A stretch of 63,997 nucleotides of DNA, filler included, from Stramenopiles sp. TOSAG23-6 (Eukaryota): NCBI GenBank assembly GCA_900128565.1. It is 10 parts of 10 records of this genome, joined end to end, with 100 filler letters (N's around TTAATTAATTAA, not from the genome) between each part and the next. Parts side by side here need not be neighbours in the genome. Positions count along the whole stretch, not along the records: positions 57,804 to 63,997 come from LT636756.1; 9 more parts are not named here. The stretch is one strand, 5' to 3'. Positions 6,442 through 63,997 of this stretch are shown one piece after another (positions within the stretch are counted from its first letter, which is position 1; each line of letters starts with the position of its first letter). The position numbers and the translations under genes are program-made. The notes beneath the pieces were generated by a model. That model ran no database searches. It was given only the letters and a program-made list of their open reading frames with translations, and was not told the DNA's origin.

Positions 6442-6520
6442 AAAAATATTTCAAAAAAAAATCGTTAGGTACAAAATTTCGTACGAAAAAAAATTGAATT
6501 TGAAAAAATATAAAACGTAT
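6442..6520 (-). mobile_element. Repeated intron, truncated by contig end; AT donor
   Basis: Minus strand ATACGTTTTAT...TCGTACGAAATTTTGTACCTAACG...GAAATATTTTT. Confidence 0.8.
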
Positions 6521-8051: not shown

Positions 8052-9327
8052 ATGCTCGCTTGTGTTAGAAATACCCCAAAACATGTCCGAGTACAATTAG
8101 TCCGACACTTGTCAGCTGCGCCAGCACTTCCGGACTGCCCAAACTTTTCGTCTGGTCCAACTGCCAAACGACCAGGATGGTCATTTGACAATCTTAATGC
8201 TGCTTGGCTAGGCCGTTCTCACCGTGCTGCAGGACCGAAACAACGACTTAAAGATGTTATTGATGCCACTCACGAGTTGTTGGAACTTCCTTCAGACTAT
8301 CTTGTTGGCATTGTTCCTGCTTCTGATACAGGCGCGTATGAAATGGCAATGTGGTCCATGTTAGGTCCACGACCTGTTGATATGTTTTATTGGGAATCGT
8401 TTGGCAAAGGTTGGGTGACAGACTCTGATAAACAACTTCAACTGAAAGATCAAAATCACTATTCTGCAGAATATGGTGAGTTGCCAAATTTATCTCTGGC
8501 AAATCCAAAGCATGATATCTGCTTCACTTGGAATGGCACAACGTCGGGTGCATGTGTGCCAAACGCAGATTTCATTTCAGAAAATCGTGAGGGTCTTACC
8601 TTTTGCGATGCTACATCTGCTGTCTTTGCAATGGATCTTGAATGGCCAAAGCTTGACGTTACAACTTTTAGTTGGCAAAAGGTTTTAGGTGGGGAAGGCG
8701 CGCATGGTGTCATTGTCTTGAGTCCTCGAGCGGTAGAAAGACTTGAGAATTTTTCTCCCGAGAGACCTTTGCCTAAGATTTTTCGAATGACAAAAAATGG
8801 AAAACTTGACGAAGCAATTTTCAAAGGGTCTACAATCAATACTCCATCTATGCTATGTGTTGAAGATTGTCATGATGCTCTAAATTGGGTTCGAAATATT
8901 GGTGGTTTAAAAGCAACAATGGCACGTGCAAATGAAAATCTTTCAGTTATTGAAAAATTTGTTTCTGAGAATGAGTGGATTGACTTTCTTGCAAATGACC
9001 CTTCATCACGTTCAAATACATCAGTTTGTCTTACACTAGATGCGAAACCTGAAGATGTCAAGGCAATGTGTACACTATTGGAGGAATCAGGTGCTGCATA
9101 TGATATTGGCTCGTATAGGGATGCTCCGCCAGGTCTTCGCATTTGGTGTGGTTCAACTGTTGAGTCCAGTGACTTACGTGTATGTTTTATATGAATTTCT
9201 AATTTATTTTTTTTTTTCGTATGAAATGTAGTACCTAACGATTTTTTTTTTGAAATATTTTTTCACAATACGTGCCCTAATGCCCTGGTTAAAATGGGGA
9301 TATGAGCAATGTTGTATTAAGAAATAA
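8052..9327 (+). CDS. serC: Phosphoserine aminotransferase (alphaproteobacterial/Methanosarcina type) with probable mitochondrial presequence; exons 8052-9179 and 9274-9327
   Basis: [50 protein letters not shown]; spliced tail [15 protein letters not shown]. Confidence 0.93.
9180..9273 (+). mobile_element. Repeated non-canonical intron (GT-GT), 94 nt
   Basis: GTATGTTTTATATG...GTACCTAAC...GAAATATTTTTTCACAATACGT; TACGTG direct repeat at both junctions. Confidence 0.88.
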
Positions 9328-9391: not shown

Positions 9392-10877
9392 TTAATCAAC
9401 GATTTCAATTTTCTTATGTTTTTTACATACTAATGTATGCGCGTCTAGAAACAATTTATTTCTCCAATTTGATTTACTCAATTTTTTACCATCCATCTCC
9501 TTCTCAAGAATTTCATCGGCTTCTTTTATTGATTTTGCAGCTTTAAGTTTTGCTAATCGTCGCCAAAACATTATCAATGCATTATTTTCATCAGGGTACT
9601 TGCACAACTCGCCATTGGCTTGGGCACACAAATCTTTGACCCTTCTTAGAGGATGTTTCAGTTTACGATGCATTTGAATACCACTTGCAATTTCTAAATC
9701 TTTTATACTAATTTGGTAATCTGTTAAAGGTCTTTCTATAGGGGCAGGTTTGTTTGGAATAACAAATGCTGCTGCGCATCTCCTTTTACCTGCGTCATCT
9801 TCAGCCAGAATAACTTTAAACAAATGAGTAGGAACTGCTATACCATGTATTGTGAAAAAACATGAAATCACAAAATAAAATCGTTAGGTACGAAATTTCG
9901 TACGAAAAAAAACTGTACATAAAACATTGAAAAAAACTAAAACATACATGATGTCCAATCAGAGGATATTGAACTAATTGAACTTTCTCACTTTTGGACA
10001 TTTTATCAGGAAGAAAAAGTGGCCCAGATATAACAAAAACATGATCGAAAGGCTTCCAGTTTTGTTTGGACACCGTTGAACTATTTGGGTTATTTTGGTT
10101 ATTTGGGTTGGGAAGACTTTTACGTTTGAGAGATTCACTATATTGACTATTGTCGATCGTATTGTCTACTTGAGTTTGACTAGTTTTATTCACTTTATTA
10201 TTCTTTGGTTTCTTCTTTATACCCTTCACTAATTTTCGCGTAAGATATTCTAATCTAAGCCAATCAGAGCCATTGAAACACCTGTCAAGTGAAAATATTC
10301 TTACAGTGCTCTGATATTAGTAAAATTGTAGGAAAAATAAATAAATTTGAAATTGTTTCTAGACTACACACATTTCCTGTGGCACTATATTTGATGATAG
10401 TTGAAAAGTTGCATCGAGAGTTTGTTGTGTTTCCTTATGATTAGCTGCAGCAGCAAGGTGTCCCTTAGAATATCCACTATTTTTATAATCAGACGCTGTT
10501 TGATTAAGATGTTTTGGGACTGCTTGGTCAGATGTGAAACGAGAATGACTTCGAGAAACACCACGTTCTTTCTTGCAAAAACTCTCCTTGGTCAGGTGCT
10601 CTGCCACCCATTCTGGTAGGCGAAGGCGGGTGTTTATAGAAGTGACGTAGCTATCACTTTTTTCCTCTACAATATGCACAGTAGGAATACCATATGGGCA
10701 AATTGAATTGAACTTTGGCTGCAATTGCACTTGCACTGTAGGACTTGTAACCGGGTCCGGGTCTTTTTGAACTGCACCTGTGTCAGTTTTATAGAAATAA
10801 CGAAAACAATTATCAATGGTTATACCGAGGATAATACCCGCACCTAAACCATTATTGAATCGTTGCCCAAAAAGCAT
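9392..10877 (-). CDS. DNA/RNA non-specific endonuclease (EndoG/Nuc1 family); exons 10877-10372, 10281-9948, 9844-9392
   Basis: PEWVAEHLT, DYKNSGYSKGHLAAAANH, SNIVPQ, VISGPLFLP, IAVPTHLFKVIL. Confidence 0.9.
9845..9947 (-). mobile_element. Repeated non-canonical intron (GT-AT), 103 nt
   Basis: Family motifs present; restores YPLIGHH|GIAVPTH. Confidence 0.9.
10282..10371 (-). other. Canonical GT-AG intron, 90 nt
   Basis: GTGTGT...TACTAAT...GAATATTTTCACTTGACAG; restores NIVPQEMCFNGSDWLRLE. Confidence 0.85.
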
Positions 10878-11183: not shown

Positions 11184-12719
11184 TTAACGACGTCTTTGGG
11201 AAACTTTAAGCTTTGCCATTTTCTTTGCTAAAATATGTTTATAGTCACGAATTGCACCATCGAATTTTGTGACACCTTTGTCTTCACAGACCCAAATTTC
11301 ATTTGCAACTTGATCAATTAAACGAAAATCATGAGAAACTAAAACTACGCCACCTTTAAACATTTTAATTGCTTCAACAAGACCCTGAACAGCCTCAATA
11401 TCTAAATGATTTGTCGGCTCATCGAGTAAAAGCACTCCGCATGTATTGTGAAAAAATATTTTTTTTTAAATTCGTTAGGTACAAAATTGCGTACGAAAAC
11501 AAAATTCGATTTTTTTGTTAAAAAAAAAATAAAACATACTAGGAGTCATGGCAATCATAGCAAATACAAGTCGACTCCTTTGACCATCACTTAGTAAACC
11601 AATGGGTGATGTTTGATTTCCTCGTGTAAACCCAAAATTACTTAAATAAGCAATCCATGCTTCTGCACTTCTTGGTCGACCAGTCCCTTTCGCCACAGAT
11701 TTTGGAGGAAAAGTCTTTTGCATAAATTCTAGAGGCGAAAGATCTAAATCAAGAACATCAGCACTGTGTTGATGGTACAGCGCCATTTTTAATTTACTGT
11801 GCGTTTTTACTGCACCTGTAGTGGGTAACAATTCCCCACTCATTAGTTTTAAAAGAGTTGACTTTCCACAACCATTAGGACCAACCAAAGCTACTCTTGA
11901 ATCATAATCAACAGCTATATTCAAATCTTCATACAAATAATCCTCCTTCTTACCGCTGTACCCAAATGAAACATTATCAAAAGGCATTACAGGAGGGGGT
12001 AAACGATCAGTCTCTGGAAAAGTAAATACCAAAGATGACTCACGCACCTGTGGCTTTGCTACGGCATCATTTTGAATTTTTTCTAAAACTCTTTTTTTAG
12101 ACTTTGCCGAAGCTGCCTTTCCATTTGCTTTATTCACTCGAACGTAAGTTGATAACTTCGCCATGTCAGCTTGTTGCTTTTCGTATTGCTTCACCTGCAC
12201 TCTTTCTTCATCAGTAGTCACTTTTACAAATGTCTCATAATTACCTCCATAGTACTTCAGTTTAGCTCCTGCACTTCCAGAACCTCCGCTATCAAACCAA
12301 GGATTGGGTTTTAACCAAATTGTATCTGTACATACAGCATTCATAAAATCTTCTGAATGAGTTACAACTACTAAACATTTATTCTTTGGGTAATTTGCTA
12401 AATGTTCCTCCAACCATACACATGCTTCCAAGTCTAAATGATTTGTTGGTTCATCCAAAAGTAAAAGCGAAGGCGCGGCAAATAAAGCTTTTGCTAGTGA
12501 AACCCTCATCCGCCAACCTCCAGACATGTTTTTAGTTTTTCTATCCATTGGCACTAATCGATCACAGAATCCAAGACCACTAAGAATTAATCGAGCACGT
12601 GGTTCTGAACCTACTGGGTCAAGTTCATCTAGACGGTCGTATATGGCCTCCAGACGATCATCTTCAGGTCCTTCCTCCTCCATTATTAACTCAGCTAATG
12701 CTTCTAGTTTAGCACACTC
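11184..12719 (-). CDS. ABC-F family ATPase (ABCF2/ARB1-like), 5' part missing; exons 12719-11540 and 11440-11184
   Basis: [23 protein letters not shown] twice, [26 protein letters not shown]. Confidence 0.92.
11441..11539 (-). mobile_element. Repeated non-canonical intron (GT-AT), 99 nt
   Basis: Family motifs; gives [16 protein letters not shown] (an in-frame AG 6 nt further downstream is an alternative). Confidence 0.8.
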
Positions 12720-12772
12720 ATGTATTTTGGAAAAATATTTGAAAAAAAAATCGTTAGGTACAAAATTTCGTA
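12720..12772 (-). mobile_element. Repeated intron, 3' half at contig end (AT acceptor)
   Basis: TACGAAATTTTGTACCTAACG...AAATATTTTTCCAAAATACAT followed by in-frame [16 protein letters not shown]. Confidence 0.85.
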
Positions 12773-12893
12773 NNNNNNNNNNNNNNNNNNNNNNNNNNNN
12801 NNNNNNNNNNNNNNNNTTAATTAATTAANNNNNNNNNNNNNNNNNNNNNNNNNNNNNNNNNNNNNNNNNNNNCTCCTTCGATGGAAAGAAAAT

Positions 12894-12986
12894 GTATCTT
12901 TTTATTTTTTTTCAAATTCCAATGTTTTTTTCGTACGAAATTTTGTACCTAACAAAAACAATTTGAAATATTTTTCCAAAATACAT
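12894..12986 (+). mobile_element. Repeated intron (GT-AT), 93 nt; 5' side probably mis-joined
   Basis: Family motifs; its upstream flank duplicates the exon end and donor at 14432-14474. Confidence 0.8.
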
Positions 12987-15160
12987 CTGCGTCAGCTATC
13001 GCACTTGGTCATTCTAATGTAGCATCAATATCGTCCGCTTCAGCAACGTCATTAGTAGCTGCGTGTGAAGTCCCAAGATTGTTCTTGAGGAGAGTAAAAC
13101 ATGGTATAATGACACGTGCTCCAGCCCCAACCGGTAGAGGTGGTGTTCATAAAGCAGCTTTGACAATGAGGAAAATGTTACGTAAACAAAAAGGTGGTCA
13201 GTATAACGTTAATCGTCTGTGTTCGTTTGATCAAATAAACTTTGCTTTATCTGGTGCATCAACGGAAGAGAATTTATCTGGTGTTTTTTGTGGTGGTGTT
13301 CGACCAATCTGGATACTTTGTGTTCATGGTGAAATCATAGTAATGCCTTTAGTCTTACCACATAAAGAAAAGGTGAGTATGTTTAATGGCATGCCACCCG
13401 TGACTACTTTTGCACCTTTTAGTTCACCGTTTAATCCTGGAGGTTTTGTGTATTACCATCGTTCAGGTGCACTTCGTATTTGTCAATTTTCAACACCAGA
13501 GGATGAAGCAGACGGTGCTAGTAAAAATAACGAAACTGGTGCTGAGCCACGTGGTGCTCTTCGTAGTCACTTTAGTGTACATGGCGGTGGTTCTATCGTT
13601 GTGCGAAAGGTTGATATGAAATGTTCTCCTCGACGTATTGTTTACATGGGTGATGCTGTCGTAAATCCTAATAACAATTCTTTAGGGGAAGGTGAAGATG
13701 AAACTTTATTACCAACATATGCAGTTTTATTTCAAACAGAAAGAGCTCGCGATATTCGTCGTGAAGCAACAGAAGAAGCTCTTCAAGTAGACGTTATTGC
13801 TGATGGATATGATCAACGTCAGCGTGATAATTATATTAATGATAATTATTGTGAAGCGAAGAGAGACATGGGTGGTGCACCTCCACTTTTTGTTCGATCG
13901 TATGATGTACGACTTATTCAATGTGGTGGTGATGGTGTTGGTTCTTGTACTGAAATATCTCGAATAGAATTAAAACCAAGAGAAGTAGGTACATGTATGA
14001 CTTTATTGTCACTTCCATTGAGCGAAACGGATCATTCAAAGAAAGAGGCTGCGGTAGCTGTTGGAACAATGCTTATACGCCCAAAAAATGAAGATGAAGA
14101 AGCAATGGGACGTGTAGTATTGTATTCTGTGAAACATGTAAATGCAAAAAGTGCGAATGCGGATGGAGTAGATGAAGAAGAACAACAACAACAAACAATA
14201 CCTGTCTTGAAAGTAACATATGAAAAAGAATTTAGAGGTGGTGTTAGTGCAATAACACAGATGAAGCTTCGTAAATATATAGCTCTGAGTTCCGGGTCTA
14301 AAATTTTCCTTTTTAAATGGATGAAAGAGTCACTTGTAGGTCTTGCCTTCTTTGATGGACCTGTTTACATCCACTCCTTAATGGCAATTCGTGATTTTGT
14401 TGTGTTTAGTGATGTTCATAAATCTGTGCAACTCCTTCGATGGAAAGAAAATGTATCTTTTTATTTTTTTTCAATTTTTTGTCTAAATTTTTTTCAAAAC
14501 ATTTTGTACTTAACAAATTTTAGTTTTTTTTTGAAATATTTTTCCAAAATACATGATCGACGTTTAGTTCTATTAGCCAAAGATTATGACCCATTAGATT
14601 CGACCGCATCATCATTTATGATTAATGACCGTCAACTTGGACTTGTCGCAGCTGACGAACAAAGTAATTTGACTGTTTTTAATTATTCGCCATTGGATGT
14701 TCATAGTAGAGGTGGACATAAACTTCTTGTAGGGGCCGATTTTCACCTTGGTCAAAAAATTTTATGTATGAATCATCGTCGTATGCTTCCTGATCGCGTT
14801 GGTCGGAAAGTATTACGGTATGCTTCTCTTTTTGGAACATTGGATGGAGGTATTGGTGCGTTGGTACCTATTGATGAAGGTGTATTTCGTCGATTACACA
14901 ATTTACAACGTGCAATGGTGATGGGTCTTTCTCAGAATGCAGGATTAAATCCATGGACATATCGAACATGGAGAGAACCTGGTGGGCACGGTTGTCTTTT
15001 GCGTAATCCCAAAAGACGCATTGCTGACGGGGTTGTTCTTTGGAAATATCCAGATTTAGATTATACGATGCAATTGAATTTAGCTAGATGTATTGGTAGT
15101 ACACCAGAAATGATTTTAGATAATTTAATGCGAATAGATCTAGCCACAATATTATTGTAA
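12987..15160 (+). CDS. CPSF1: Cleavage and polyadenylation specificity factor subunit 1 (CPSF160), C-terminal part; intron 14453-14554
   Basis: GVFCGGVRPIW, LVGLAFFD, SDVHKSVQLLRW, LLAKDY, SRGGHKLL..ADFHLG, FGTLDGGIG, AGLNP. Confidence 0.9.
14453..14554 (+). mobile_element. Repeated non-canonical intron (GT-AT), 102 nt, in frame and stop-free
   Basis: GTATCTTTTT...GTACTTAAC...GAAATATTTTTCCAAAATACAT; restores WKEN|DRRLVLLAKD. Confidence 0.88.
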
Positions 15161-15439: not shown

Positions 15440-18400
15440 ATGATGTCAGGTAGATATACATGTTATGAATTATACATATTAATTTTATTGTTTGTATGTT
15501 TTAATGGTCTCTCCGTGGAGAATCCTTCTCTGAAAGTATATTTTAATGTGACAAAAGTGGATGCACATGACTCATTGTCGTCTACTCCAAACATACGTAT
15601 TGAACAAATATCTATGGAAAAAAATGAATTGATTGTAAATGTAAACACAAAAAGAATTGATCAAAAGCATATATTATGCTTTTCAATCTCAAAAATCTCC
15701 GAAGAATCTGAAGAAAAGGTAGATTATTCTTCTTTGAGTGTATTATGCGATAATGGTACAATAAATACGTTTCTCACATCTGAAGTCACCTCAGAAATAT
15801 ATGTATTATCATCATACGCCATGTTTATCAATAGTAGTAAATTTAGGGTAAAGGCAAGTATATATATGAAATCACCTTTATTTATAGATGGTGTTCCTGT
15901 GAGTAGCGTCTTACACTTGAAGAGTGTTGACACTATCAAAAATAGTGGACCAGTTACATTTTCCGAAAAAGTTGTTGATTTTTCTAAAACGACAAGTAGT
16001 ATAGAAGATGAAGAAGTTTTTTTTCACCCAGAAACTGGAGGTTTACCTTTGTCATATGTATCATCTCCTTTACGTAAACAACTGTGGAAGTCTACAGAAC
16101 AACTGGATAAACAAACTAATGATGGTGAAACTTCTGATGGAGAGATAGTTAGTTCTTTGTTGAGTGTATTACCTACAGAATCAATACCCATAGAATCTTT
16201 AGTCAGTGCTGCTAAGAAGGACCGCGTGCACGCATGGCGATTTGATAATGTTATTCTCGATGTCGAAGCAAAAAATATTATATGTATGTTTTTTAGTATG
16301 ATGTTTTTTTCGTTTTTTTTTTCATACGAAATTTTGTACCTAACAATTTTTTATTTTTTTATTTTTTACAATACATTAATACAAGGACTAAAACAACCCA
16401 ACGTTGACCTTCCTACCAAACCAATCACTACTACAAACTATAAAAGATTCCTTCAAGCAATCTCCCAAAATTGGACAAAGACTTCCTCTGATCTTTGGAG
16501 TATTGAGACTAATATGTTTATCAAATTGAGTCCACCCATTCTGACATTCTTGCCAACTTTACCTGGATCAAAATTATTTGTCTTGCAAAAATATTTTGAT
16601 TCTCAGTTGTATCACAGGAATAAATTGAACACAACATATTCATATAATAAAACACATATTACGACAAATAATATAATGACACGATGTAAATCTAATGTTC
16701 ATCACGGTTTTATAGGTTGGCGTTGTGATTTTGGTCAACATAAAGATTGTCTTGGAGATCCATTACATATCAATTCATGTCGTAAGCTAATGTCTTTTAT
16801 CAGTCAATTAAGAAATCCTTCATTTTTTCCGTGTCGGTGTCTGGATATAGAAGATTTAAGTCACTTTCACGAAAATAAAAATGACACAATATTATCAACG
16901 GCTTCACCAATAAATACGAAAAATGGTACAAATAATGCAAATAGACAAAAATATGATGTAAAAGAAGAAAAAATTGATTGTATTACTCAACCCGTTGTAA
17001 TATTTTCACTACCACTTCCGTTATACTATTGGCATGTAATGACAGAAGGCATTCTTCCACTTGCACATACTATATCACACATTGAACGCCGTATAAAACA
17101 TGATAGTCGATATAAAGAGAAAAATTATACTTCGCCACTTTTGGTAGTAGCACAACCATGGACGAGTCGATTAGTTCCACAATTTGCTCAGGAAATGTTG
17201 AAATCTTTAGGAGGTCCCGTCATTTTATCAATGGAAGATTTTTCAAAAGGTTCAGGTTTATCTAATGTAAGCCGTTTTTGTATGTTAGATGTAACTATAG
17301 GTTTTTATCCACAAATAACACAACATAGTGAAGTAAGAGCAGCAGCTTTGTTTCTCATGAATAAGATGAGTGTCCGTCGGAGAACGTCTCGATTACTTCC
17401 TCATATACCTCATACATCTGCCATTGATGATGAATTAATAAAATCAAAAAAAACAAAAATGAAAAATGTCAGTCCACAAAAACCTCGCGTAGTTTTTATT
17501 CAAAGATCTCGACGATGTGCTGCAGCTGATGCAAGTTGGATTAAAGTATCCAAAGAAATAAATGGAAATAGTACAGGAGATTTATTTGATAATAATTTTG
17601 CTATGGTTCGCAATCATACATCATCTAATAGTACTTTTGTGAATAAAACTAATGAAAAATCAAAACAAAAAAAAATCAAAGCATCAATTCGTACGGAAAA
17701 TGCTTCTCGTGTCATTATTAATATGGATGATCTTGTAGCTGTTGCCCTAAATCTTGGTGCTGATGTTGAAGTAGTTACCATGGAAAGCTTGAGTTTACAA
17801 AAACAAATCGAGGTAGCTCATAGTGCTGATATTTTAGTCTCCGCTCATGGATCAGCGTGGGCTAATGTTATGTTTATGCGGACTGATTCCGCGGCAATTC
17901 AACTATTAGGTTATGGTTTTAAAGAAGGCTGTTTAGCTTTAGTTCATCAACAAAGAATGCTTTTTCAGAATTCTACTTTTCCTACAGATGATTTTTGCGA
18001 TGGTATTGGAGTCGATTTTCCTGCATTGGTACCAGGTACTTACTTTGAATTGGAAGAAATGGATCCGCATCATTTCAAACCGTTATTTACTTTTCCTGAT
18101 CGCTATTGTCAAAAGAATAAATCCTCATCTAACTTGACTAAAAGTTATGAAGAGTGTAGAAAAATAGAGGCAAATAATGAAATGCTAGCACGGGAGTCTC
18201 CAAGATGGCTTTGGAGCTATCATTTTAAAAGAGCATATCATTACTTCAAAGGCGCTCATTTTTATGTTGATACAAAGAGATTTTATCGTGTTATGAAACG
18301 AGCCTTGGCTGTTGTTCTTGCAGCACCGGAAACAGAAAAAGAAGCTTCTGTTGCATATGACGTCAGAGAAGAATTCGAAACGAAAGAATATTTCCAAAAG

Positions 18401-19148: not shown

Positions 19149-19201
19149 GTATGTTTTATTTTTTTTCAAATTCGATTTTTTTTTTTATAAAAATTTTGTA
19201 C
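19149..19201 (+). mobile_element. Repeated intron, 5' half at contig end
   Basis: GTATGTTTTATTTTTTTTCAAATTCGA...AAATTTTGTAC. Confidence 0.8.
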
Positions 19202-19384: not shown

Positions 19385-21208
19385 GTTCCTTACGAATAAT
19401 AATATCATTATTCAATGCGTTGTGTTCGACTGTTTCTTCTTCATCAGTCGTGTTGTACTCTTCTGATGTCATGTCGACTGTATCGATACATCTTATTTGA
19501 TGATCTGTTGAATTCTTTATTGTTCTGCTAAGAATTCTTATTGGATCATTGTCTTTATTCCTTTTTTCTGGAATAGAGTGTACAGTATCTTTAGGGTTAG
19601 GTTTTTTTTCTGGAATAGAGATTACATTATCTTTAGAAAAAACATCCGAAGAATCTTCTGTTCGTAATAAACGCGGGCAAAATATCTTTTCAGTGCGTAC
19701 ACTGTAGTTATTATCAGAATCATCATCGTCACTCATTTCTTCATCATTTGTTGGTACCGACACAACAGTACGTATTGTAAAAAAATATTTCAAAAAAAAA
19801 TCGTTAGGTACGAAATTTCGTATGAAAAAAACATTAAATTAGAAATTCATATAAAACATACACGTTGAACGTGATCTGTGAGCCATTGAAGCATACTCAC
19901 TTGATCAGATACAGACAATGCAATAATACCCTGTCTGATTTGGTATGGGGTGAAACTTTTCGAAGGTACCAACATATTGTCAGATTTAATAGTTTCAACG
20001 GCTTCATTGTTGACTGAGTTTGAATCATCATTACACAGATTTGGTTCACTATTTACTGATTTTACCTCCTTACCATGAACTCTCTCTTGAATTGTATCCT
20101 TTTCAATAATATCTACTTGTTGTTGTTGGTCGTGATTTTTATTCATGGAAGAAACAGTTGCTTTTTTATGATGCATTCGAACTCTTGATAGCTTGTCGTT
20201 TCGTTTTTTTCGTTGTCTTTCAGATGTCAAGGAACATCTACTTTCAGTATACAAATTTTCCAATGACAACGTAAGACTGTCGTTTCTTTTGTCAGCTACA
20301 TTTGAAGAACATCGTAATTTGCTATTGCGGCCATGATAAAGTGACGTCCTACTCGCTCCATGGCAAAACTTTTTATTTTGTGTTTTTAATGATTTCGGTC
20401 CTAATGTCATGCGCCGTTTCGATTGAACAATTTTAGTACGAAATTTACCACGACGTTCAAGTTCATGCATACTTGAACGATTCGATACAAACCTCACAAA
20501 ACCTCTACCATTGTTGGTATTTTTGATATTTTTCTTGGTTCTTAGAGTAGATTTGTTTTTTGGTGTGAAGCTCATTGGAACACTAGATTTACTACTTAAT
20601 TTTATTCGTTTGGGCTGACTCTGACTGGTAAGAGTTGAGTTAGGTCGTTGATTTTCTTCGTTTCCAGAAATATCTCTAACATTTCTCGTCAATCTTCGAC
20701 TTTTCTTGGTCTGTTGTTTTGGATTTCGCTCTGCAAAAGATGCTACAGTAGAACGACGTGACAGCTCACGTTTGTCTCTAGAAGATTTGGTAGTCTTTCC
20801 ACTCATTTTTTCATTCTGTTTCTTCTTCTTTCNCCATTCATCCAGCTTTTCCCGCCGAGTTAAACGACGTTGAACTAAATTGTTTTGCATTATATCGTTA
20901 TTTGGGTCAACGCCTCCTGATTTCCATGCTTCGTTGGCAAACACTTCCCCGGCAGTCCAACCTTCTTCACTCGTACCTAAAGATGAAATCTTCGATGCTC
21001 CTAACTTGGATGTAGTTTTTGTTTTACCTTCTCTCTCAGGTCGAGAATCCATCGATTTTTTTTTCAAAAGACGAAGTGGTTTGCCTAGATGTGATGATTT
21101 TAACATCTTTTTTGGGGTTTCTCGGCGTATCACGGGTGAGTTCTGTTGTACCACCCTCAAAGCTCTTCTACGCATCTTCGCGGAACGTACTCCACTTTCC
21201 ACTACCAT
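19385..21208 (-). CDS. Basic low-complexity protein of unknown function; exons 21208-19862 and 19769-19385, 3' end missing
   Basis: Two ORFs joined in frame by removing 19770-19861. Confidence 0.65.
19770..19861 (-). mobile_element. Repeated non-canonical intron (GT-GT), 92 nt
   Basis: 5' end nearly identical to the 9180 copy; ends ACAATACGT. Confidence 0.85.
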
Positions 21209-21567: not shown

Positions 21568-22504
21568 ATGAACACATTAAACAAGGGTGAAGATGCCCAG
21601 AAGCAAGCCACGTTAGCAATGGCCGATCGTCTCGAAGTTGCGGGTAGACAGCTTCAAGAGCGTGATCGTATTCGTCAACAACTGAAGAAGCAAGAAGAGG
21701 AGAAAGCAGAACTTGATGCCAAAGAAGCTGCAATAGAGGAGTATAAACGTCAGTATGAAGCAAATGCTAAAGAGCGTTTCGAGCGCTGTAATCCTGATAT
21801 CATTGAAAGAAAAAAAGAGCTACAAGAAGTAGATGATGATGTAATTGCACAAGAACGTGCACAGGAGCGTGAAAAAAAGAAGGAAAACGAAGAATTGGAC
21901 GACTCAGAAGAAGCTGTACTCCGCAGAATGCGTGCCAAGCGTATGCGGGAATTACGTGCAAAGCAGCAGAGAAGAAAACAGGGTTATGGTGACTATAGAG
22001 AAATTATTGAATCGGAGTTTTTACAAGAAGCATGTAATGCAGAATTTGTGGCAGTTCACTTTTACCACCGAGAGTTTGTTCGTTGCAAAGTGATGGATAA
22101 ACATCTTGAACGCATCTCTAGGGCACATGATACAGTGAAAATTCTAAAACTTAATGCAGAGAAAGCACCATTTTTTGTCAACAAGCTAGGAATTAAAATT
22201 CTTCCTACTGTAATAATGTTCAAAAATGGTGTTTCGTGTGATCGTATTACTGGTTTTGAACGAGTTCTTGGTGACGATAAATGTACGTCTATGTTTCAAT
22301 TTCAATTTTTTTTTCAGCAAATCTATATCTTATGGTTGCTTATACCTAACAATTACCGAATGTGACATATTCCTTCACAATATATGTCGAACACGTGCAT
22401 TGGAGTATCGCTTAATAGATGGTGGAATCATGGAGGATGAGGCTCCTATGGGAGCCTACCCAGATGATGAATTTACAGATGAAGAACTGTCTGATGAAGA
22501 CTAA
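21568..22504 (+). CDS. Phosducin-like thioredoxin-fold protein (TXNDC9/Plp1-like); exons 21568-22282 and 22386-22504
   Basis: GYGDYREI, VAVHFYH..F.RCKVMDKHL, NAEKAPFFV.KL.I..LP; spliced GDDKCRTRALEYRL. Confidence 0.88.
22283..22385 (+). mobile_element. Diverged family intron (GT-AT), 103 nt
   Basis: GTACGT...ATACCTAAC...ACATATTCCTTCACAATATAT. Confidence 0.8.
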
Positions 22505-39879: not shown

Positions 39880-40704
39880 TGTCAGCAGGAGTTCAACAGT
39901 TGCGACGTTTAAAGTGTGGTCGTATTTGTTACTTGGATAGAAATCCACTTTGTTGTGATTTAGATATGTGTGGAGTAGCATTGTTACTAAAACAGCAAAA
40001 GTGTCCATTACGTGAATTGCGTCTTCAACACTGCAGTATTAGTGATAAAGGATGTGATATAATAGCAATGGCTTTAAGAAATAACAAATCTCTCCGTGTT
40101 TTACATCTAGAATATAATTTTATAAGTACAGCTGGTGTCATTAGTATAGCGCATATTCTGAAGGATAAAACGTGTAATCTCCGTAGTTTGCGTTTAGAAG
40201 GTAATGGTTTGGGAGATCAGGCGGCTGTTGCGTTAGCTACTGCAATTTCTTGTAATTGTAATATTTCAGAATTGGGGCTAGGAATGACGGGTTTGTCGGT
40301 ATATGCATGTAGTACAATAGTTAGTGCATTACATTCAAATAGAGTAATGGAGGTCATTGAATTGCATGTACGTTTCGTTCAATTCCGATTTTGTTTTAGT
40401 ATCAAATTTTGTACCTAACAAAACAAATCAATTGTTTGAAATATTTTTTCCATTACTCGGTAATATTCAAAATAATAAAAGTAAAACCACCAATGATAAA
40501 AATGCAACATTGGGTTGCGTTTTAGATATTTTAAAGTCAGTTATATTAAGTAGGAGTAAACGTAATGCTAATCTGTCGGAAGTATTAATTGATTTAAATA
40601 GAGAGTCTTTAGCTTGGAGTAAATCGCTACCCAAATATGCTGCGCATTGCGAAACATTATACACATCATCTTGTGACCAAGTACTTCATGTGTTTTGTCT
40701 TTAA
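39879..40704 (+). CDS. RNI-like leucine-rich repeat protein or domain; intron 40368-40458
   Basis: LRELRLQHC, LRVLHLEYN, LRSLRLEGN, MEVIELH|GN. Confidence 0.7.
40368..40458 (+). mobile_element. Repeated non-canonical intron (GT-TC as placed), 91 nt
   Basis: GTACGTTTC...AAATTTTGTACCTAAC...GAAATATTTTTTCCATTACTC. Confidence 0.7.
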
Positions 40705-42388: not shown

Positions 42389-43479
42389 ATGGATTATCAA
42401 CTAATGGAAGATGGTCGAGTAAGTTTGAATCAAGGTCCGAGTAACAGCAATACACGCAATGTGGGATTGAATAGAAACAATGGTTGGGATTCGGTGTCAA
42501 GTAGTAATATTCGTGGTTGGGGAAGTACTAGTTCTAGACGTCATACTCAACAAACAGAGTTTCCCAACGAGCATGGGATAAATAAAGTAGCTGAAGATAT
42601 TAATTCATGGACACAATCATTATATTCTTGTGTGGAGCGGCTAAATGCCAACGAAATAGGCGGTCCAAAAGACACCCCAGAATTACGTAGGCGACTTCGA
42701 GTTGCGAGTGCTGACGCGACGAGAAATGTTCGTAATATCCATTCTGCTTTTCAGGAAATCGGTACGAATAAAATGGCTTCTAGTTCAAAAAAGTTCCACA
42801 AGTTGAAACGCGAATTTGAGGAAGTTTATACTCAGTTGGAGGAAGCACAAAAAAATGTCCGTCGTAAACTAAGAAACTCAATGTATGTTTTACTTTTTTT
42901 CAAATTCGAAATTTTTTTCGTACGGAATTTTGTACCTAACGATATTTTTTTTGAAATATTTTTCCAAAATACATTCAACTTGCTCAAACTCGTATAAGAA
43001 AACTTTCTTCAAATAGTGATATTCTTATGAAATCAGTAACTGGAAATAAATCTTCTATTGTAGATATAGATTCAAATTTTGAATCGAGTAATCGTCGCAG
43101 AGAAAGTAGGGATTTTGTTTCTCTACCACCACAACAACAATTATTACATGCATTTAAGCCTATTGACGTGGAACGCACTCGGTTAGAGGAAGACGAGAAA
43201 GACGCTGCTCAATTATATCAAGATTCTGTTGGCCTTCAAGAGTTAATGCAAGATCTTGGAATAATTGTTGAAAGCCAAGGACAGAAAATTGTGGAAATAG
43301 ATGATAACATTGCTGCGGGAACAACGCGAACAGGTGATGCTGCATCAGCTTTAACTGGGGCTGAAAAAAGTGACCGAGCCGCAAGAAAGAAAAGAGCATG
43401 TTTTATTCTCCTTTGTCTAGGGGGCTTAGTATTATTATTGTGGTTGTTTTGGCCAAGTTTATTTAAAAAATCACATTGA
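42389..43479 (+). CDS. Qa-SNARE syntaxin (STX7/12, Pep12-like); exons 42389-42882 and 42975-43479
   Basis: IGGPKDTPELRRRL Habc motif; SNARE motif DLGIIVESQGQKIVEIDDNI; C-terminal TM helix. Confidence 0.88.
42883..42974 (+). mobile_element. Repeated non-canonical intron (GT-AT), 92 nt
   Basis: Full consensus; removal puts both syntaxin ORFs in frame. Confidence 0.9.
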
Positions 43480-51398: not shown

Positions 51399-51437
51399 TT
51401 TTTAGATTTTTTTTTGAAATATTTTTCCAAAATACAT
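51399..51437 (+). mobile_element. Repeated intron, 3' end at contig start (AT acceptor)
   Basis: TTTTGAAATATTTTTCCAAAATACAT. Confidence 0.8.
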
Positions 51438-52583: not shown

Positions 52584-52693
52584 ATGTATTGTGGAAAAAT
52601 ATTTGAAAAAAAAATCTAAAAAAATTGTTAGGTACAAAATTTCGTACGAAAAAAAATTCGATTTTTTTGTTAAAAAAAATAAATAAAACATAC
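52584..52693 (-). mobile_element. Repeated intron (GT-AT), 110 nt, bridging exons of two different genes
   Basis: Full consensus; donor is phase 0 (importin) and acceptor is phase 2 (PDK1 PH). Confidence 0.8.
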
Positions 52694-57803: not shown

Positions 57804-57862
57804 GTTGTTTGGTTTATAGGTACTTGTTATTAATTCAAATAATCTAAATAAATTAAACATAC
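57804..57862 (-). mobile_element. Diverged intron, 5' part at contig end
   Basis: GTATGTTTAATT...AGTACCTATAAAC. Confidence 0.55.
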
Positions 57863-58347
57863 ACTAGTAGAACGAGTCAGAGACATTTCTACTTTATTAC
57901 CCGATTCACTGAATGATCGTCGTTTTTTTGAATGATTATTACGTAAATTGTTTGGTTCACTTTTTGTAGACGATGATGAATTTATTTTGGAAAAATATTT
58001 CAAAAAAAAAATTTTGTAAATTTGTTAGGTACAAAATTTCGTATGAAAAAAAAATATTTCAAAAAAAACTAAAAAAAATATTTCAAAAAAAAATAAATTC
58101 GAAATTGAACAAAAATAAAACATACATGTAATGTAATTGTACTTAATTTTGGAAAACTTTCCGATCGCGAATTTTTCCTTTTTTTAGTATAAGATTTATT
58201 ACTTGAAGTACTTTGACTACTTGATGAGATGACCATATTATTTTTTGTTGATGAATGATTTTGATCAAAAGTCTTTGTATCCGTGTTAGGGTTAGGNTTG
58301 TGAGTAGGGTTAGGGTTAGGGTTGTGAGTAGGAAACAATGATTTGTC

Positions 58348-58391
<44 letters not shown>

Positions 58392-59348
58392 CAAAAATAG
58401 TTGATGTTTCACCTAAATTATCTAAAAAAGTACAAATTTTTTGTTCTTCTTTAAGAAATTCTTTTGATAATTTTGACATTTCACTTATTTTTTTTTTATG
58501 TGTAGTTAGAGAATTCATTGCATTGGTTTGTTGACCTAAAGCTTCTTCCAATACTGATGTCGTTTGTCTTACATTTTCTTCCGCTACTCTAAAATTTTGA
58601 CGAGCTAAATTTAATTTCATTTGTGCTTGTTTTACATTTTCTGAAGTTTTATCAATTCTAGATTTTAAATTTTCTGATTCAGATGAAATAAGTTGTAAAG
58701 AAAATTGATTCACTTTATCCATTTGTTGATATTCTTTTAATTTAGTATAATGTACAACTAATCTCTTTTGGCAAATAGATGATAGAGCAACAAATGCCTC
58801 TTCAAAATCAGCTGTACGTAACTCTTCAGGGATCTTTTCTCGAATGACAAAAACTTTCGATGGTCCAAGATGCTTTTTGGAAAAATATTTGAAAAAAAAT
58901 TAAAAAAATTTTGTTAGGTACGAAATTTACTATAAAAAAAAATTCGATTTTTTTTTTTTTTAACCAAAAAAAAAATAAAACATACAGGACATGTTGTTGA
59001 GTCTTTGACTAATTCTTTCAACCAACGAAACACTTTTGATATATCGTCAACGGAATGTGTTGTTGTACAAAAGTGTAAAAGATGAGTAATTTTTTGTGAC
59101 AGAACGGATTCACTTGTACGGTGATCCTTTCGTAAATCTTCGCAAATTCGTTTCAAGTCTAACTGTGGGACAAAAAACTTATTTTGTAATTTTACTTGAG
59201 TGACAGGAGAAAGATCATTTGCTTTAAGATATTCTTCAAGCGCTGAACGCTCATATGTCTGTCCATCCGATGCTAACACTGGGTCTTTAAACAGCGCTTT
59301 AGTTAGTGGACAACACAAACTATTGGGATATTCTCGTTGATGAGCCAT
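57863..59348 (-). CDS. U-box domain protein with coiled coil and poly-Q; exons 59348-58986, 58869-58126, 57979-57863
   Basis: LCCPLTKALFKDPVLASDGQTYERSALEEYL...SPVT; frames are continuous after removing two family introns. Confidence 0.82.
57980..58125 (-). mobile_element. Repeated non-canonical intron (GT-AT), 146 nt, internally duplicated
   Basis: Ends CCAAAATAAAT; contains three GAAATATTTTT motifs. Confidence 0.8.
58285..58390 (+). repeat. TTAGGG-type repeats and a (TTG)n microsatellite inside CDS
   Basis: GTTAGGGTTAGG...TAGGGTTAGGGTTAGGG; about 14 TTG units encoding poly-Q. Confidence 0.85.
58870..58985 (-). mobile_element. Repeated non-canonical intron (GT-AT), 116 nt
   Basis: Ends CCAAAAAGCAT; joins TTCP|LGPSKVF in frame. 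Confidence 0.85.
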
Positions 59349-59733
59349 TTCGTCAGTTGTTTTTTATAACCCAAAGAGTATAAATAATATACAATTTGAT
59401 ATCTAGAACTAGTTGTTATAAATGTATAGAAAATAAGCTTTTGTTATTGTCCTGTTTTTGTTTTTGTTTGTTGGACAATCGTATTTATCTTTTTCCTTCT
59501 GCTGGCACCAACAGAAGAAAGAAAAATGATATATAAATATTCCTCCAAAAAAAAAAAAAAAACTGTTTTTTTTGGGACCTGTCCAAGCCAACAAGTCCCC
59601 AAAACTCGAACTGAAACACGTGGCTCGTGTGCTCTGTCAACACTCTCTTTGTTGTTGTCGTTGTGTGTAGTTTATTATATACCACGGGATCAAATTAGAG
59701 AGTTCTCTGCATTACTATTTATTCAATAATCTA

Positions 59734-60228
59734 ATGATTAATATTACGCAGTTTTGCTCGGTCACAAGTCGATCGGTATATACCCCAATATGTTCATCTC
59801 TTGCTATTCGTAACTTTGCCGTAGCTAAAAAGAAAAAGACAAAAAAAGGACGGCCGGGAGCAACTGGGAATGATGACCACAGTGGAAGTGACGGTTTAAG
59901 TACAGAGACAAAACGTCAAATGCTTGAGTTTCTTGATCCAGAAGGTCAGAATATTGATGAAAAACACTGGAAACCTCCCCCATTCACACCAGAGCAGAAA
60001 AAAATAAGAAATAACTATTTAGCAAAGTCATTTCTGAGAAAAAACTTCTGGGATAATGATATAACACGAAAAATCAATCTAAAACAACAAGCTATCCAAA
60101 GTCTTCCAACAAATTTAAGAAATCACGCTCTAGTCATTGATGAAGAAATGCCACCTGATGGGCTATTTACTATTCCAACATTTTATCCTCCAAAGGAAGG
60201 ATTTGAAATGTCAACCGATCAAACATAA
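59734..60228 (+). CDS. Probable mitochondrial ribosomal protein mL40
   Basis: Presequence-like N-terminus; KQQAIQSLP..LRNHAL..D...P....IPTFYPP. Confidence 0.65.
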   Translation: MINITQFCSVTSRSVYTPICSSLAIRNFAVAKKKKTKKGRPGATGNDDHSGSDGLSTETKRQMLEFLDPEGQNIDEKHWKPPPFTPEQKKIRNNYLAKSFLRKNFWDNDITRKINLKQQAIQSLPTNLRNHALVIDEEMPPDGLFTIPTFYPPKEGFEMSTDQT

Positions 60229-60392
60229 TAGTACCTAGGGTTAGGGTTATAAAAAAAAATATACAATTTTTACTTTATTTTTTTTTTTTGTTTTTTTTTG
60301 TTTTTTTTGTATAACATAGCTGATGAGATATTCACTTTTTTCATTATAAAAAGTAGAATGTAGAATGTTTTATAGAGGATTATAGAGATTGA

Positions 60393-63300
60393 CTATTGTC
60401 TATTTTTATGTCGATTTCGCCACATTCTTGAATCACGATATGTCTTTTTTTTGTTAGGGTTAGGGTGGTTAGGGTTAGGGTTGTTCATGTGTTCTATTTT
60501 TTTCGATAATTGTCTTGTATTTTCAATNTTATTTCGATTTTGTGATTTGTTTTTACTATTTTTTACTGTTTTTACTGTTTTTACTGTTTTTACTGTTTTT
60601 ACTATTTTTACTGTTTTTACTGTTTTTACTGTTTTAGTATTTTCTTCAGTTGGATTCAAAATTTCAATCGAAAATTTTGGAAGTATACATGATTTTGTGA
60701 AAAAAAATATTTCAATTTTTTTAAAATTGTTTTTTGTTAGATACAAAAAAAGATACAAAATGTACTACAAAAAAACATGTAAAATTGGATGTTGAAAACG
60801 TATTTGTTTTTGTCATGTTTACTTTTTTTTTAGTCTTTGTTTTTTGTGTATTTTCGATGATTTTTCTTGTTTTTCTAGGTACTGAAAAAGGTACAAAAAT
60901 TGTATCTTTTTTAGAACTTTTTGAACTTTTGATTGTATTTTTTATATTGCGTTTATTTCCACTATACGTAGGGTTAGGGTTAATTATTTCATTCTTTTTC
61001 TTATTGATTGTATTTATTGACATATCAATAGTATTAAGATGATTGTTTGATGAAACCCATGGGCACAAGTCATCATCATAAAAAGTAAGAGTAGGGTTAG
61101 GGGTATTATTCAGTGTCGTTGAATTTAGTCTACTTTCTTTCGTTTTGTTTGTCATTTTTTTGTTTTTTGGTTTTTGTGCCAATTTTGTTTTTTTTGTCTT
61201 TTTTGCTATGTTTGTAACATTGAAGTGGAATATTACATCTTTATTACAAATAGTATTACTATTTTTCATACTTTTCATTTCATTTTCAATATCATTTTCA
61301 ATATCATTTTCAATATCATTTTCAATATCATTTTCAATATTATTTTCAGTATCATTTTCAATATTATTTTCAATATTATTTTCAGTATCATTTTCAATAT
61401 TATTTTCAATATCATTTTCAATATTCTGTGTATTTAAAATAGTACAAATATGTTGCACCATATTCTCTGTATCAGATAAAGTTGCCCCAATGCATTTACC
61501 ATATACAACTCTTTTTGCTTTATAATTATTATGACATATTGGTCTTTGTATGGTTTTAGCTTTTTGGTGTATACCAAATATTGTAGATCTCATGTTTGAT
61601 CTATGTATATTCTGCTTTGATGATTTCAATCTTGATATAATTCTATTAGACCTTGTTTTGTTTTTTATAGAAGATTCTGTTGGTCGTTTCATCATTCGCA
61701 AAATTGTTCCTTGAAAACTAGATTGTTTATTGGTATACTTATTAGGTATCTCGTTGCACAAAAGTACTGTTTTGTCTTTTATTTTTACAGTTTTTAATTG
61801 TGTATATTTCCTATTTGCTCCATCAAGAGAATACTTTATTCTATTTTGTGTTTCTCCTTTTTCCAAATGTATAAATTGTGAATTTGTAGTTGATGAAAAA
61901 AGATGATGAACAACATCATCATATTTATTCTGTGAATTGTATCTTTGCTTTTCTTTTGTACATGTTGTACAATGATCTTTTTGATTTTTGTCTGTAGTAT
62001 CATTGCATTCATTCTCCTTTTTTACTTGACTATATGTATAATCTATTGATTTTTGTTTTTTCGTTGATACTGCTGATTGTTGTCCATAAGAAGCTAAATC
62101 TATTATGACTTTATGTTTGTGTTTGTTTCTGTATTTCGGTCTACTTGGATACAAGAAAGACGTTTCCTTTGATAATTCGATACTATTTGAAAAAGGTTTT
62201 GGATTTATCTTTGTGCCATTTAAAACGACACTATGTTGTATTACGTTTTTTAATGAACAAAAATCGATAAAAGTTTTATTTTCTTTTATGCAGGGTTTTG
62301 TTTTATGTCTTATTTTAGATCCTTTCATAGCGACGCGTTTTACTTTTGTTTTACTGTTGTTTTTTCGATGAATTTGATGTCTATCATTGGAACTAATTTT
62401 CCGCAAAGACACTTTATTCTGGTAATTTGTTTTTATTCTTTGATTCTTCTCTGTTGCACACAAAACTTTATTATGTTCAATAGATTTAATTGTGTTGTTA
62501 TTTGTGTCGATAGTAACAATACTATCTTCTTTGTCAGAAGATGTGTTATCATCAGTGACACAACTAGCTATTGTATCAGTATCATTCGATTGACAACTAG
62601 TTGTTGTATCAGTATCATCAGCGTCAGAACTAGTTGTTGTATCAGTATCATTAGATTGACAACTAGAAGTAGTTTTATTTTGGGTATCTTCCACAGATAA
62701 TTGTCGAAGAGTCTTATTCGATTTGTTAGCAGATTCTTTATTGTACACGACTACTTTCTTTTTCATTGGTGGTTTTGAATATTTTTGAATCGATGTGTTT
62801 AGATTCGTTTTTATCAACTGTTTCTTTTCACATTTGTCGTTGATTGAAGTTTTGTTTAATTGTTCATATTGTGTTTTAACTTCGGAGCGATTCATCTGTC
62901 CATGTATAGATGAATGTGAACTATCCTGGATATTGAAATTTGATGTTTTATATAAAGTTACAGGACTGGAAGAGGGAACATTTTTCGTGTCGTTTTTGCC
63001 GTAGATGTTGCGTGATATTCGTAATGGTAGACCATTGTTACTGATCGCCGAAAGTATTGTTTGAAGTCTGTGAGAACAGCGGCTTTTTGTTACATCTTGT
63101 CTACACTTTTGTTTATCCATATTTTGTAATATATTTCTGGTGTAATTTGTCTGCTGTTTGTCGCCTTTATTCTTTGCATATTTTCTAATTGCTGGATATG
63201 GTGCAATGTTTGCATTATTTAATCTTCGTTTTCCATGATGTCTTTTGAACTTCTTTACTTCAGGCTTCATCTGTATATTACGAAAACGGTGAAAAAGTTT

Positions 63301-63716
63301 TTCATTAGTTCGTTTCTCCACATCGNNNNNNNNNNNNNNNNNNNNCCATCATTTCGTTTACCATAATAAATTTGCCGCATATTATTATTCGTTTGAGAAT
63401 AAACTTCCCTCGGAATTTCTCTAGCCACCTCAGTGTTCGCAGAGTTAAAGTCTACAAATTCGGATGATGAACTCGATGCAGAGTCATTGTCCGTATTTGG
63501 ATAACTGTATTTGTTACAACGATACTTTTTTTTAGCTTCGTCATGTTCAACAAATGACGATGTTAATGCATGGAAATGAACATCACAAATTCCCTCATTT
63601 GTAGATGCATTATAAATATTCTTTGGTATGAAATGATTATTCTTTGAGTCAAGGTCATCGTCTACTTGTAGGTGATGTACATATAAAATAGGTAAATTTG
63701 AAATATTGTCAGTCAT
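60393..63716 (-). CDS. Long K/N/T-rich low-complexity protein; N gap at 63326-63345; intron 60689-60803
   Basis: 866 aa ORF plus flanking ORFs; IEND and KTV repeats. Confidence 0.55.
60689..60803 (-). mobile_element. Repeated non-canonical intron (AT-AT), 115 nt
   Basis: ATACGTTTT...GTATCTAAC...GAAATATTTTTTTTCACAAAATCAT; joins two ORFs in frame (MTKTSILPKF). Confidence 0.75.
61278..61425. repeat. 12-bp tandem repeat encoding IEND/IENN; a 9-bp TTTTTACTG repeat lies at about 60551-60635
   Basis: ATATCATTTTCA variants, about 12 copies. Confidence 0.9.
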
Positions 63717-63997
63717 TCCTTCAAATGTATCTCAGATATATAGTACACATCAACCTCTATAAGACATAAAATGCTTCAATCTAAAATTCTTTTGATAGAC
63801 TGTGAATTGTATATAATATGGAGATAGGTACTTGCTACCTTTAGTGTTCGATGTATTTAGGGTATCAGATAAGATTGCAGTTACGCACACCAATGACTCC
63901 TTTGTATGTCCTTAAAAACACGAAAAACAAAGAAAAATAAAATGGCACAAAAACCAAAAAACAAAAAAATGACAAACAAAACGAAAGAAAGTAGACT

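Follow-up and report, generated by a model that had tools for sequence, protein, structure and literature searches.

Introners are transposon-like intron-generating elements known from Micromonas, Aureococcus, Symbiodinium, Florenciella and others, and as described in PMC9860276 they recruit or carry GY...AG splice sites. We analyzed a stretch of 63,997 nt, filler included, from the genome of Stramenopiles sp. TOSAG23-6 (assembly GCA_900128565.1; the whole stretch is called the window below), which carries a family of repeated introns that resembles introners and departs from them at the intron ends. As in PMC9860276, many near-identical short copies sit at unrelated gene positions, what look like short terminal inverted repeats occur together with a short target-site-like direct repeat, removal restores the coding sequence (here as judged by homology), the assembly breaks at copies, and presence/absence variation between strains is probable. 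Unlike the elements treated there, the copies in the window have a homology-defined end at ...AYRT/ with no AG, and 3 of the 19 with a 5′ end begin with A. One member, a diverged copy at 60689-60803 on the minus strand, had been read in the original prediction as a complete AT...AT intron. We find that the AT...AT reading is unproven and, at 60803, not the best-fitting solution, and that the wider family, the copies of which must be removed at a non-AG 3′ end, is the more interesting object.

The introner elements of Amoebophrya, as reported in PMC7789003, are likewise repeated introns of a marine protist that lack GT-AG, with inverted repeats that join the ends and direct repeats over the borders that leave the cut ambiguous. 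Their inverted repeats measure 8-20 nt and their direct repeats 3-5 nt, against a helix of 6 pairs and a repeat of 2 nt in the window, and that account describes no fixed end dinucleotides and no U1 small nuclear RNA (snRNA), whereas a perfect GUAUGU and CUAAC are present here; the lineages differ as well, Amoebophrya being a dinoflagellate and the present organism a stramenopile. The U12-type introns of Physarum polycephalum, as described in bioRxiv 10.1101/2020.10.12.336362, share a purine as first base, GT-AT and AT-AT pairs, inverted repeats that reach the splice sites (rtatctt...aagATAT) with a 2-nt direct repeat, and massive recent gain, Physarum having acquired thousands of transposon-like U12-type introns. 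The same account gives RTATCYTT, a TTTGA branch 9-12 nt from the end, and mostly AG or AC ends, in contrast to the G/T at +5/+6, the CTAAC 34-49 nt upstream, and the AT or GT ends that are the rule in the window. The nonconventional introns of euglenids and hemistasiid diplonemids (PMC12501133, PMC12621601, PMC6221363) are described as lacking GT-AG, with pairable ends, short border repeats and a proposed origin from miniature inverted-repeat transposable elements (MITEs); unlike the present copies, which keep GUAUGU, they are without a U1-complementary 5′ end, and the lineage is unrelated. The Euglena code of CAG/CTG at +4-6 and -8 to -6 given in PMC12501133 is absent here, where +4 to +6 read YGT and -8 to -6 read AAT or CAA. 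Finally, the tunicate Fritillaria borealis, as cited in PMC12621601 and PMC7789003, has many non-GT-AG introns that are thought to be MITE-born and to be handled by an adapted major spliceosome; these show mostly AG-A(N) patterns (PMC7789003), in an animal, and the citing texts do not describe a single dominant family with a canonical donor. Within the accounts given by these sources, a fixed non-AG end is found together with a canonical donor and branch in none of the introner, Amoebophrya, Physarum and euglenozoan systems. In the open PMC and bioRxiv main texts, supplements aside, we found no report of introners or noncanonical introns in marine stramenopiles (MAST); of two MAST genomics papers, one has the word "intron" twice, in its methods text, and the other does not have it at all.

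The window consists of ten contigs of 6,194-6,341 nt each, ordered by length and separated by linkers (N44-TTAATTAATTAA-N44 at 6342-6441, 12773-12872, etc.); the ten contigs are unrelated, and therefore neighboring loci are not linked and a feature that reaches a linker has reached a contig end. The window inventory of this 88-146-nt intron family, made with an nhmmer profile built from 11 complete copies, comprises 14 complete copies, five with the 5′ part only and two with the 3′ part only, plus one chimeric contig start. These 21 copies and the chimeric one are spread over at least 12 genes at unrelated intron positions, and the hosts include genes for DDX54/DBP10, CPSF1, ABCF, an EXOG-like nuclease, an importin-beta-like protein, a class-V aminotransferase and a GT61-domain protein. 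The copies follow a common grammar, exon ...RT / GTAYGTTTT - T-rich - CGTACGAAATTTTGTACCTAAC - T-rich - YCAMAATAYRT / exon, in which the core can also be written (C)GTACGAAATTTTGTACCTAAC. Across the window there are 20 matches to RTAYGTTTT, where 5.4 would be expected, and 29 to GTACCTAAC with at most one mismatch, where 7.3 would be; neither count is reached in any of 100 shuffles. Each of the 19 copies with a 5′ end adjoins a sense open reading frame (ORF) of 57-1250 aa, the antisense ORF being shorter every time.

As the original prediction had held, most donors are U2-like and the branch-like motif is far from the 3′ end. GT comes first in 16 of the 19 copies and the fuller GTRHGT is found in 14; the remaining first bases are the A of three copies, which fail this pattern. 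Of 13 complete copies, 12 have CTAAC at -34 to -49 from the 3′ end, with T-runs after it. The last intron base is T in all 14 complete copies, and the base before it varies between A and G.

The position of the 3′ boundary was determined by homology in three genes, DDX54, CPSF1 and ABCF, in which collinearity with orthologues returns at ...AYRT/ and at no AG; the family boundary is therefore ...AYRT/, not AG. In the DDX54 copy at 4338, the exon 1 alignment reaches residue 422 of the human chain and exon 2 begins at 423. The aligned ends at the CPSF1 copy at 14453 (299 of 300 to residue 1238; residue 3 to residue 1242) extrapolate to 1239/1240. In ABCF the boundary ...ATACAT/ gives back S/C-G-V, and x-G-[VI]-LLLDEP is present in 14 of the 14 homologues printed out of 78 identifiers scanned, the remainder being without the pattern or cut. 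The annotated ABCF model (P0122) instead uses a GT-AG intron of 105 nt with the acceptor GCGGAG/, reads MTP-M-LLLDEP, and so loses x-G-V, with Met in its place. More generally, the reading frame is kept at the family-homologous 3′ end in 12 of the 13 complete copies with a recognizable end, and AG forms the last two bases at the homology-defined end in none of the 13, in agreement with the earlier claim that the family acceptors are not AG. Taken together, these alignments show, at the level of sequence, that family copies must be removed exactly at ...AYRT/. Two copies seem to have shifted to a normal AG acceptor, which may be used instead. In copy 52693 the first AG after the branch motif (intron length 78) is in frame and the family boundary is not, and its use would add 11 residues; in copy 58985 ATAC is changed to AAGC, giving an in-frame AG 3 nt early. 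Stwintron-type nested splicing was rejected as an account of the ends, the family consensus being without AG near the 3′ end. Ciliate-like elimination at the DNA level is unlikely, with copies abundant in RNA-library contigs and strictly sense-oriented. The G-first, partial and chimeric copies are as follows.

4338..4425, plus strand: G-first copy in the DDX54/DBP10 helicase gene, exact excision by homology.
9180..9273, plus strand: G-first copy that ends ACGT with flank ACGT; the downstream ORF is just 17 aa.
14453..14554, plus strand: G-first copy in CPSF1, donor GTATCTTTT, exact excision by homology.
16284..16376, plus strand: G-first copy in the GT61-domain gene.
22283..22385, plus strand: diverged G-first copy, GTACGTCT...CAATATAT, in frame.
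40368..40458, plus strand: diverged G-first copy, 3′ end not recognizable, end coordinate approximate.
42883..42974, plus strand: G-first copy near the family consensus.
9845..9947, minus strand: G-first copy in the EXOG/EndoG-like nuclease gene, junction by frame only.
11441..11539, minus strand: G-first copy in ABCF, non-AG boundary restores the conserved x-G-V.
19770..19861, minus strand: G-first copy that ends ACGT with flank ACGT, in the gene shared with the A-first 19384 copy.
52584..52693, minus strand: G-first copy in the importin-beta-like gene, family boundary out of frame.
57980..58125, minus strand: G-first copy of 146 nt with an internal duplication.
58870..58985, minus strand: G-first copy that ends AAAAGCAT, with an in-frame AG 3 nt before the family boundary.
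19149..19201, plus strand: G-first copy, 5′ part at a contig end.
57651..57703, plus strand: G-first copy, 5′ part at a contig end.
44983..45107, minus strand: diverged copy, GTAGGTTTT...ATACCTAAC, reaching a contig end; putative 3′ end.
12720..12772, minus strand: 3′ part at a contig end, ...AAAATACAT/ followed by an ABCF exon.
51399..51437, plus strand: 3′ part at a contig start.
12873..12986, plus strand: chimera at the start of a contig; its first 43 nt are a repeat of 14432-14474.

For the EXOG-like copy at 9947, exon 1 alone gave no match in the PDB. A metagenome contig (L052) holds one more family copy, 94% identical to the copy at 9947 and at a different locus; it is the 1 true family copy among the 77 loci of the metagenome scan, and 0 of the 6 loci of a viral scan and 0 of the 3 loci of a prokaryote scan are true copies.

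The junctions carry two further marks, both very short. In 10 of 14 copies the flank and the intron end in the same two bases (permuted mean 7.1, P = 0.01); both ACGT-ended copies share the flank repeat but belong to one subfamily. Together with this direct RT repeat, which is 2 nt and sometimes 3-4 nt long, the ends GTAT...ATAC look like a short terminal inverted repeat with a 2-nt target duplication. Because of the direct repeat at the boundary, the cut can be written as GT..AT, TG..CA or AT..AC, the last of these in the 10 window copies with an AT flank. In addition, a terminal helix can form between the final six bases of the intron and the string made up of exon positions -2 and -1 and GUAU. 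Its six pairs are each present in 10-13 of the 13 G-first copies, and it lies within the minimum-energy fold of all 7 G-first copies folded.

The three copies that begin with A were found at the positions given in the original prediction, on the minus strand, each at the 5′ end of a family copy that interrupts an ORF: ATACGTTTT starts at 60803 and at 6520, and ATATGTTTT at 19384. They and the alternatives at 60803 are listed here.

60689..60803, minus strand: complete, diverged A-first copy that starts ATACGTTTT and ends AAAATCAT, 115 nt, removal in frame.
60689..60776, minus strand: GT-AT alternative in the 60803 copy, acat/GTTTTT, with the common 3′ end, 88 nt, in frame.
60683..60803, minus strand: AT-AC alternative in the 60803 copy, ATACGT...GTATAC/, 121 nt, in frame.
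6442..6520, minus strand: A-first copy ATACGTTTT in the 3-hydroxyisobutyrate dehydrogenase gene, 3′ part lost at a contig end.
19302..19384, minus strand: A-first copy ATATGTTTT in the gene of an unnamed acidic protein, 3′ part lost at a contig end.

Seawater DNA and RNA runs contain window sequence, and the aligned contigs differ from it at a few sites per 150-500 nt; the read-contig alignment was made for 57804-63997 only. Two contigs confirm the A at 60803: a DNA contig of X1 that covers 60606-61115 with 0 differences, though X1 may be the assembly's own source, and an RNA-library contig of X4, which is from another study and covers 60786-60921 with its sole difference at 60845. This A is therefore not an assembly error, and the three A-first copies are real DNA variants. 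They form no subfamily, since in its interior each resembles a different G-first copy. T precedes the intron in 15 of 16 G-first copies, and the three A-first copies have C, C and A there (Fisher P = 0.004); since this exon base also departs from the usual T, the A-first copies are not simple G-to-A point mutants. All three are in phase 1, following the first base of a codon, a position shared by 3 of 13 G-first copies (P = 0.036). Those at 6520 and 19384 break off at contig ends ∼80 nt into the intron, and the visible part of each is the 5′ end only.

Use of the A in splicing is unproven in the A-first copies. In the young copies at 6520 and 19384, a genuine A as first intron base has somewhat less than an even chance; at 60803 it is rather unlikely. 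The expectation that the exon end GCG C at 6520 would suit a GFSIA-L continuation was borne out, as it fits the Leu that relatives read next (GFSIT-LMAKD, GFRLG-LMKKD and GFKLG-LMLKD). Protein P0002, with 98.6% identity over 209 aa, reads GFSIT-LMAKD uninterrupted across the 6520 site, and its start is a GTG directly behind an upstream GT-AG intron, as expected of a gene call on unspliced DNA. From this start codon and the uninterrupted reading, we infer a close strain that probably lacks the 6520 copy. An AT target copy followed by an element without GT was tried as a description of these junctions and rejected, as it would place His before LMAKD at 6520 and be out of frame at 60803. As a separate observation, protein P0001 (6522-7788, minus strand) has a PF01329 pterin-4a-carbinolamine dehydratase domain fused to 3-hydroxyisobutyrate dehydrogenase across a GT-AG intron at ∼7165-7272, a putative fusion or a merged model.

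Excision of 60689-60803 (115 nt) joins the 840-aa upstream ORF in frame to the downstream ORF, so that this part of the original prediction stands; the solution is not unique, however, as the GT-AT (60776-60689) and AT-AC (60803-60683) cuts listed above are in frame as well. The copy is much diverged, the profile matching 60776-60695 only (E = 0.65), and the 115-nt stretch keeps the family block order with 60689 as the family-homologous 3′ end. Among 219 in-frame donor/acceptor pairs, 60803/60689 can form just 1 of the 6 helix pairs, 60776/60689 forms 5 of 6, and 60803/60683 forms 4 of 6. The stretch 60776-60689 also obeys the junction grammar, with T at -1, G at +1 and a flank AT equal to the last AT; 60776 is the only in-frame GT donor found there by reading the sequence, and the fold pairs UACAUG (60781-60776) with CAUGUA across the 3′ junction. 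The X4 contig (record 20, 162 nt) lies on 60921-60786, with its last 25 letters unplaced, and thus reaches 18 nt past the A donor, which speaks against efficient use of that donor in the sample. Gene stretches without RNA cover (e.g., 60288-60494) were not counted as evidence.

The host protein at 60803 is a low-complexity orphan. A word-index search with it gave 1 unrelated match, and the 35 matches of a HMMER search are all to an ENDIEN-type repeat, which is the only thing shared by the best of them (P0242); in these searches no relative spans the junction. Its gene holds a 9-nt tandem repeat, GTAAAAACA, at 60567-60602 (minus strand) that encodes TVK repeats, and telomere-like CCCTAA hexamers at 58310-58321 and 60454-60480 are read as Asn-Pro repeats inside ORFs. 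The 54 nt that follow the 60803 copy, 60635-60688 on the minus strand (GTATAC...TTTTCGATTGAAATTTTGAATCCAAC...GAAAATACTA), bear a faint likeness to a short second copy, the removal of which would be frame-neutral. A second degenerate copy at 60688-60635 is not supported, with an nhmmer score of 0.8 bits and 33 of 500 shuffles aligning equally well.

The explanation that we prefer takes 60689-60803 as an introner copy, old and diverged, from a transposon-like intron family that is repeated in huge numbers. A major-type (U2-type) spliceosome would recognize the GUAUGU donor and the CUAAC branch, and the terminal inverted repeat of the element would fix the non-AG 3′ site by holding the 5′ exon end beside the 3′ junction; the short direct RT repeat would be a target-site duplication. 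The A at 60803 would then mark a disabled original donor, and the transcript would most likely use the in-frame GT 27 nt downstream (60776) or splice poorly. We place the probability that donor and branch are recognized in the major-type manner, with the 3′ site set by the element itself, at roughly 0.45. Several observations weigh against this explanation or its parts. To our knowledge, a non-AG 3′ end is unheard of as a rule for the U2-type spliceosome. Removal from RNA is inferred from homology only, as no spliced read or contig crosses any copy among the joints listed. The fold z-scores, +0.02 to -1.79, are no better than those of shuffles, and the terminal helix has 6 pairs only; the ABCF copy (flank ta) forms neither exon pair, yet its removal is required. 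As a criterion the helix is weak, with 6 of the 219 in-frame pairs at 60803 scoring at least 5. As a donor, the GT at 60776 (GTTTTT) is poor. Chance is an unlikely source of ATACGTTTT at 60803 so near a copy, with ∼5 RTAYGTTTT expected in the 128 kb of both strands, and the match of the X4 contig stops at 60786 rather than at 60777, which neither donor model explains. Were the A-first copies dead alleles, 3 of 19 would be a high share, and P0002 could still derive from partly spliced RNA.

Those who would keep the A as donor can take 60803-60689 as spliced in the form of a true AT...AT intron, with 6520 and 19384 likewise cut from the A, which needs a purine first and a U last (G.U or A-U replacing G.G). 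The in-frame removal of 115 nt, the preserved block order with a homologous 3′ end at 60689, the presence of A in 3 of 19 copies, all within open ORFs, the final T of all 14 complete copies after an A or G, and the fit of GCG C to the Leu of relatives at 6520 all agree with this, and GT-AT and AT-AT pairs are known from the Physarum U12-type introns described in bioRxiv 10.1101/2020.10.12.336362. Nevertheless, with an RNA-library contig that extends past the A by 18 nt, only 1 junction pair of 6 able to form, a base before the A that is never the usual T, a host protein without a homologue to fix the junction, and no spliced product among the joints listed, we consider it unlikely. The A is also retained if the copy is an AT-AC intron of 121 nt (60803-60683), which would preserve the known compatibility of a first A with a last C; this is in frame, and AUAC pairs with GUAU at -6 to -3 in the register of the G-first copies (4 of 4 core pairs). 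Its 3′ end, however, would lie 6 nt past the family-homologous end, 0 of 2 exon pairs form, the X4 contig reads past the A here too, and a 4-base match is not rare among the approximately ten nearby in-frame ends, which makes the AT-AC intron highly improbable. A broader proposal, that a new rule (purine first, U last, no AG, and a 3′ site chosen by the helix) governs the splicing of thousands of transposon-born introns in a MAST-3-type stramenopile and that the A-first copies are working members, is in our view doubtful.

The U12 lead of the original prediction failed in both motif tests. The U12 branch motif is TTCCTT[G/A]AC within ∼45 nt of the 3′ end and usually much nearer; its core CCTTRAC occurs in 0 of 13 complete copies, the best look-alike being TCCTTCAC in one copy, ending 7 nt from the end, and the U12 5′ splice site RTATCCTT occurs in 0 of 19 copies. 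The relaxed form RTATCYTT is matched once, by the copy at 14453 (GTATCTTT), a variant of the Physarum type. The true site of the CPSF1 donor GTATCTTTT, called U12-like in the original prediction, is 14453, and its twin at 12894 belongs to a chimeric contig start. A minor (U12-type) spliceosome with co-evolved snRNAs, as in Physarum, would explain both the purine at +1 and the free 3′ bases. RTAYGTTTT agrees at +1 to +4 and at +7 to +9 with the [G/A]TATCCTT(T) of bioRxiv 10.1101/2020.10.12.336362, where the Physarum U12-type introns are described as looking transposon-born, with noncanonical pairs that include GT-AT (17%) and AT-AT (8%). In a separate source, Blastocystis, like the present organism a non-ochrophyte stramenopile, is described as having ∼250 minor introns and all four minor snRNAs. 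Against this stand the motif counts, the CTAAC at 34-49 nt from the 3′ end and the GTRHGT donors of 14 of 19 copies, and a search of the 64-kb window for snRNA genes found nothing with Rfam, whether at the gathering threshold or at E up to 1; a minor spliceosome is accordingly improbable. The copies might also leave the RNA by a nonspliceosomal route, the end helix being cut on both strands with a 2-nt stagger by an activity like RNase III or the transfer RNA endonuclease and the exons then ligated. Models of this kind are discussed for euglenids, hemistasiid diplonemids and Amoebophrya in PMC12621601 and PMC7789003, and the 6-pair terminal helix of the G-first copies, the short direct repeats that overlap the boundaries, and our own reading of two cuts 2 pairs apart in the helix would suit it. 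All 19 copies are in the sense orientation, although a symmetric terminal repeat would form either way; this strictness points to strand-specific signals rather than a symmetric hairpin. A perfect and well-placed GUAUGU and CUAAC with T-runs after, a short helix in folds no better than shuffles, the ABCF copy without exon pairs, and the absence of the Euglena signature N3-CDG...CH'G-N5-6 also speak against such a route, which we regard as decidedly unlikely.

The organism and the assembly deserve mention here. The 220-aa exon of 3-hydroxyisobutyrate dehydrogenase is 100% identical to a protein labeled "GSMAST32 ... assembled CDS", and the ABCF protein has the same label; the host is taken to be a MAST-3-type marine stramenopile on this source label alone. 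A diplonemid or euglenid origin, which the non-AG ends had first suggested, was discarded in view of the label. Seven of the 19 real contig ends are situated in intron-family copies, and word depth in X1 is ∼2x10^5 over a copy vs ∼9 on unique sequence, a figure that is a sum over contigs and not a copy number. The start of the third contig, 12873-12915 (43 nt), is identical to 14432-14474, an exon end and intron start 1.5 kb onward in the same CPSF1 gene, and is an assembly chimera at the repeat. The fifth contig (26255-31991), unlike the others, has 25 scattered single N positions, which may be masked ambiguous bases.

Bursts of intron gain are at present best explained by introners, and nearly all of the families described so far keep to GY-AG. 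The present family has a textbook donor and branch and yet, by homology, a non-AG removal, in MAST, a group whose intron types are unreported in searchable papers. Gene models restricted to GT-AG are wrong at these sites, and probably at many family copies, as the annotated ABCF model that drops the conserved x-G-V illustrates, and the repeat breaks assemblies. The A-first copies are the sharpest probe of the system: if they are spliced, the first base is free to be either purine, and if not, they represent newly arisen null alleles from which the cost of an active introner can be gauged. Should the new boundary rule prove true, the first and last bases of a spliceosomal intron would be re-codable genome-wide.

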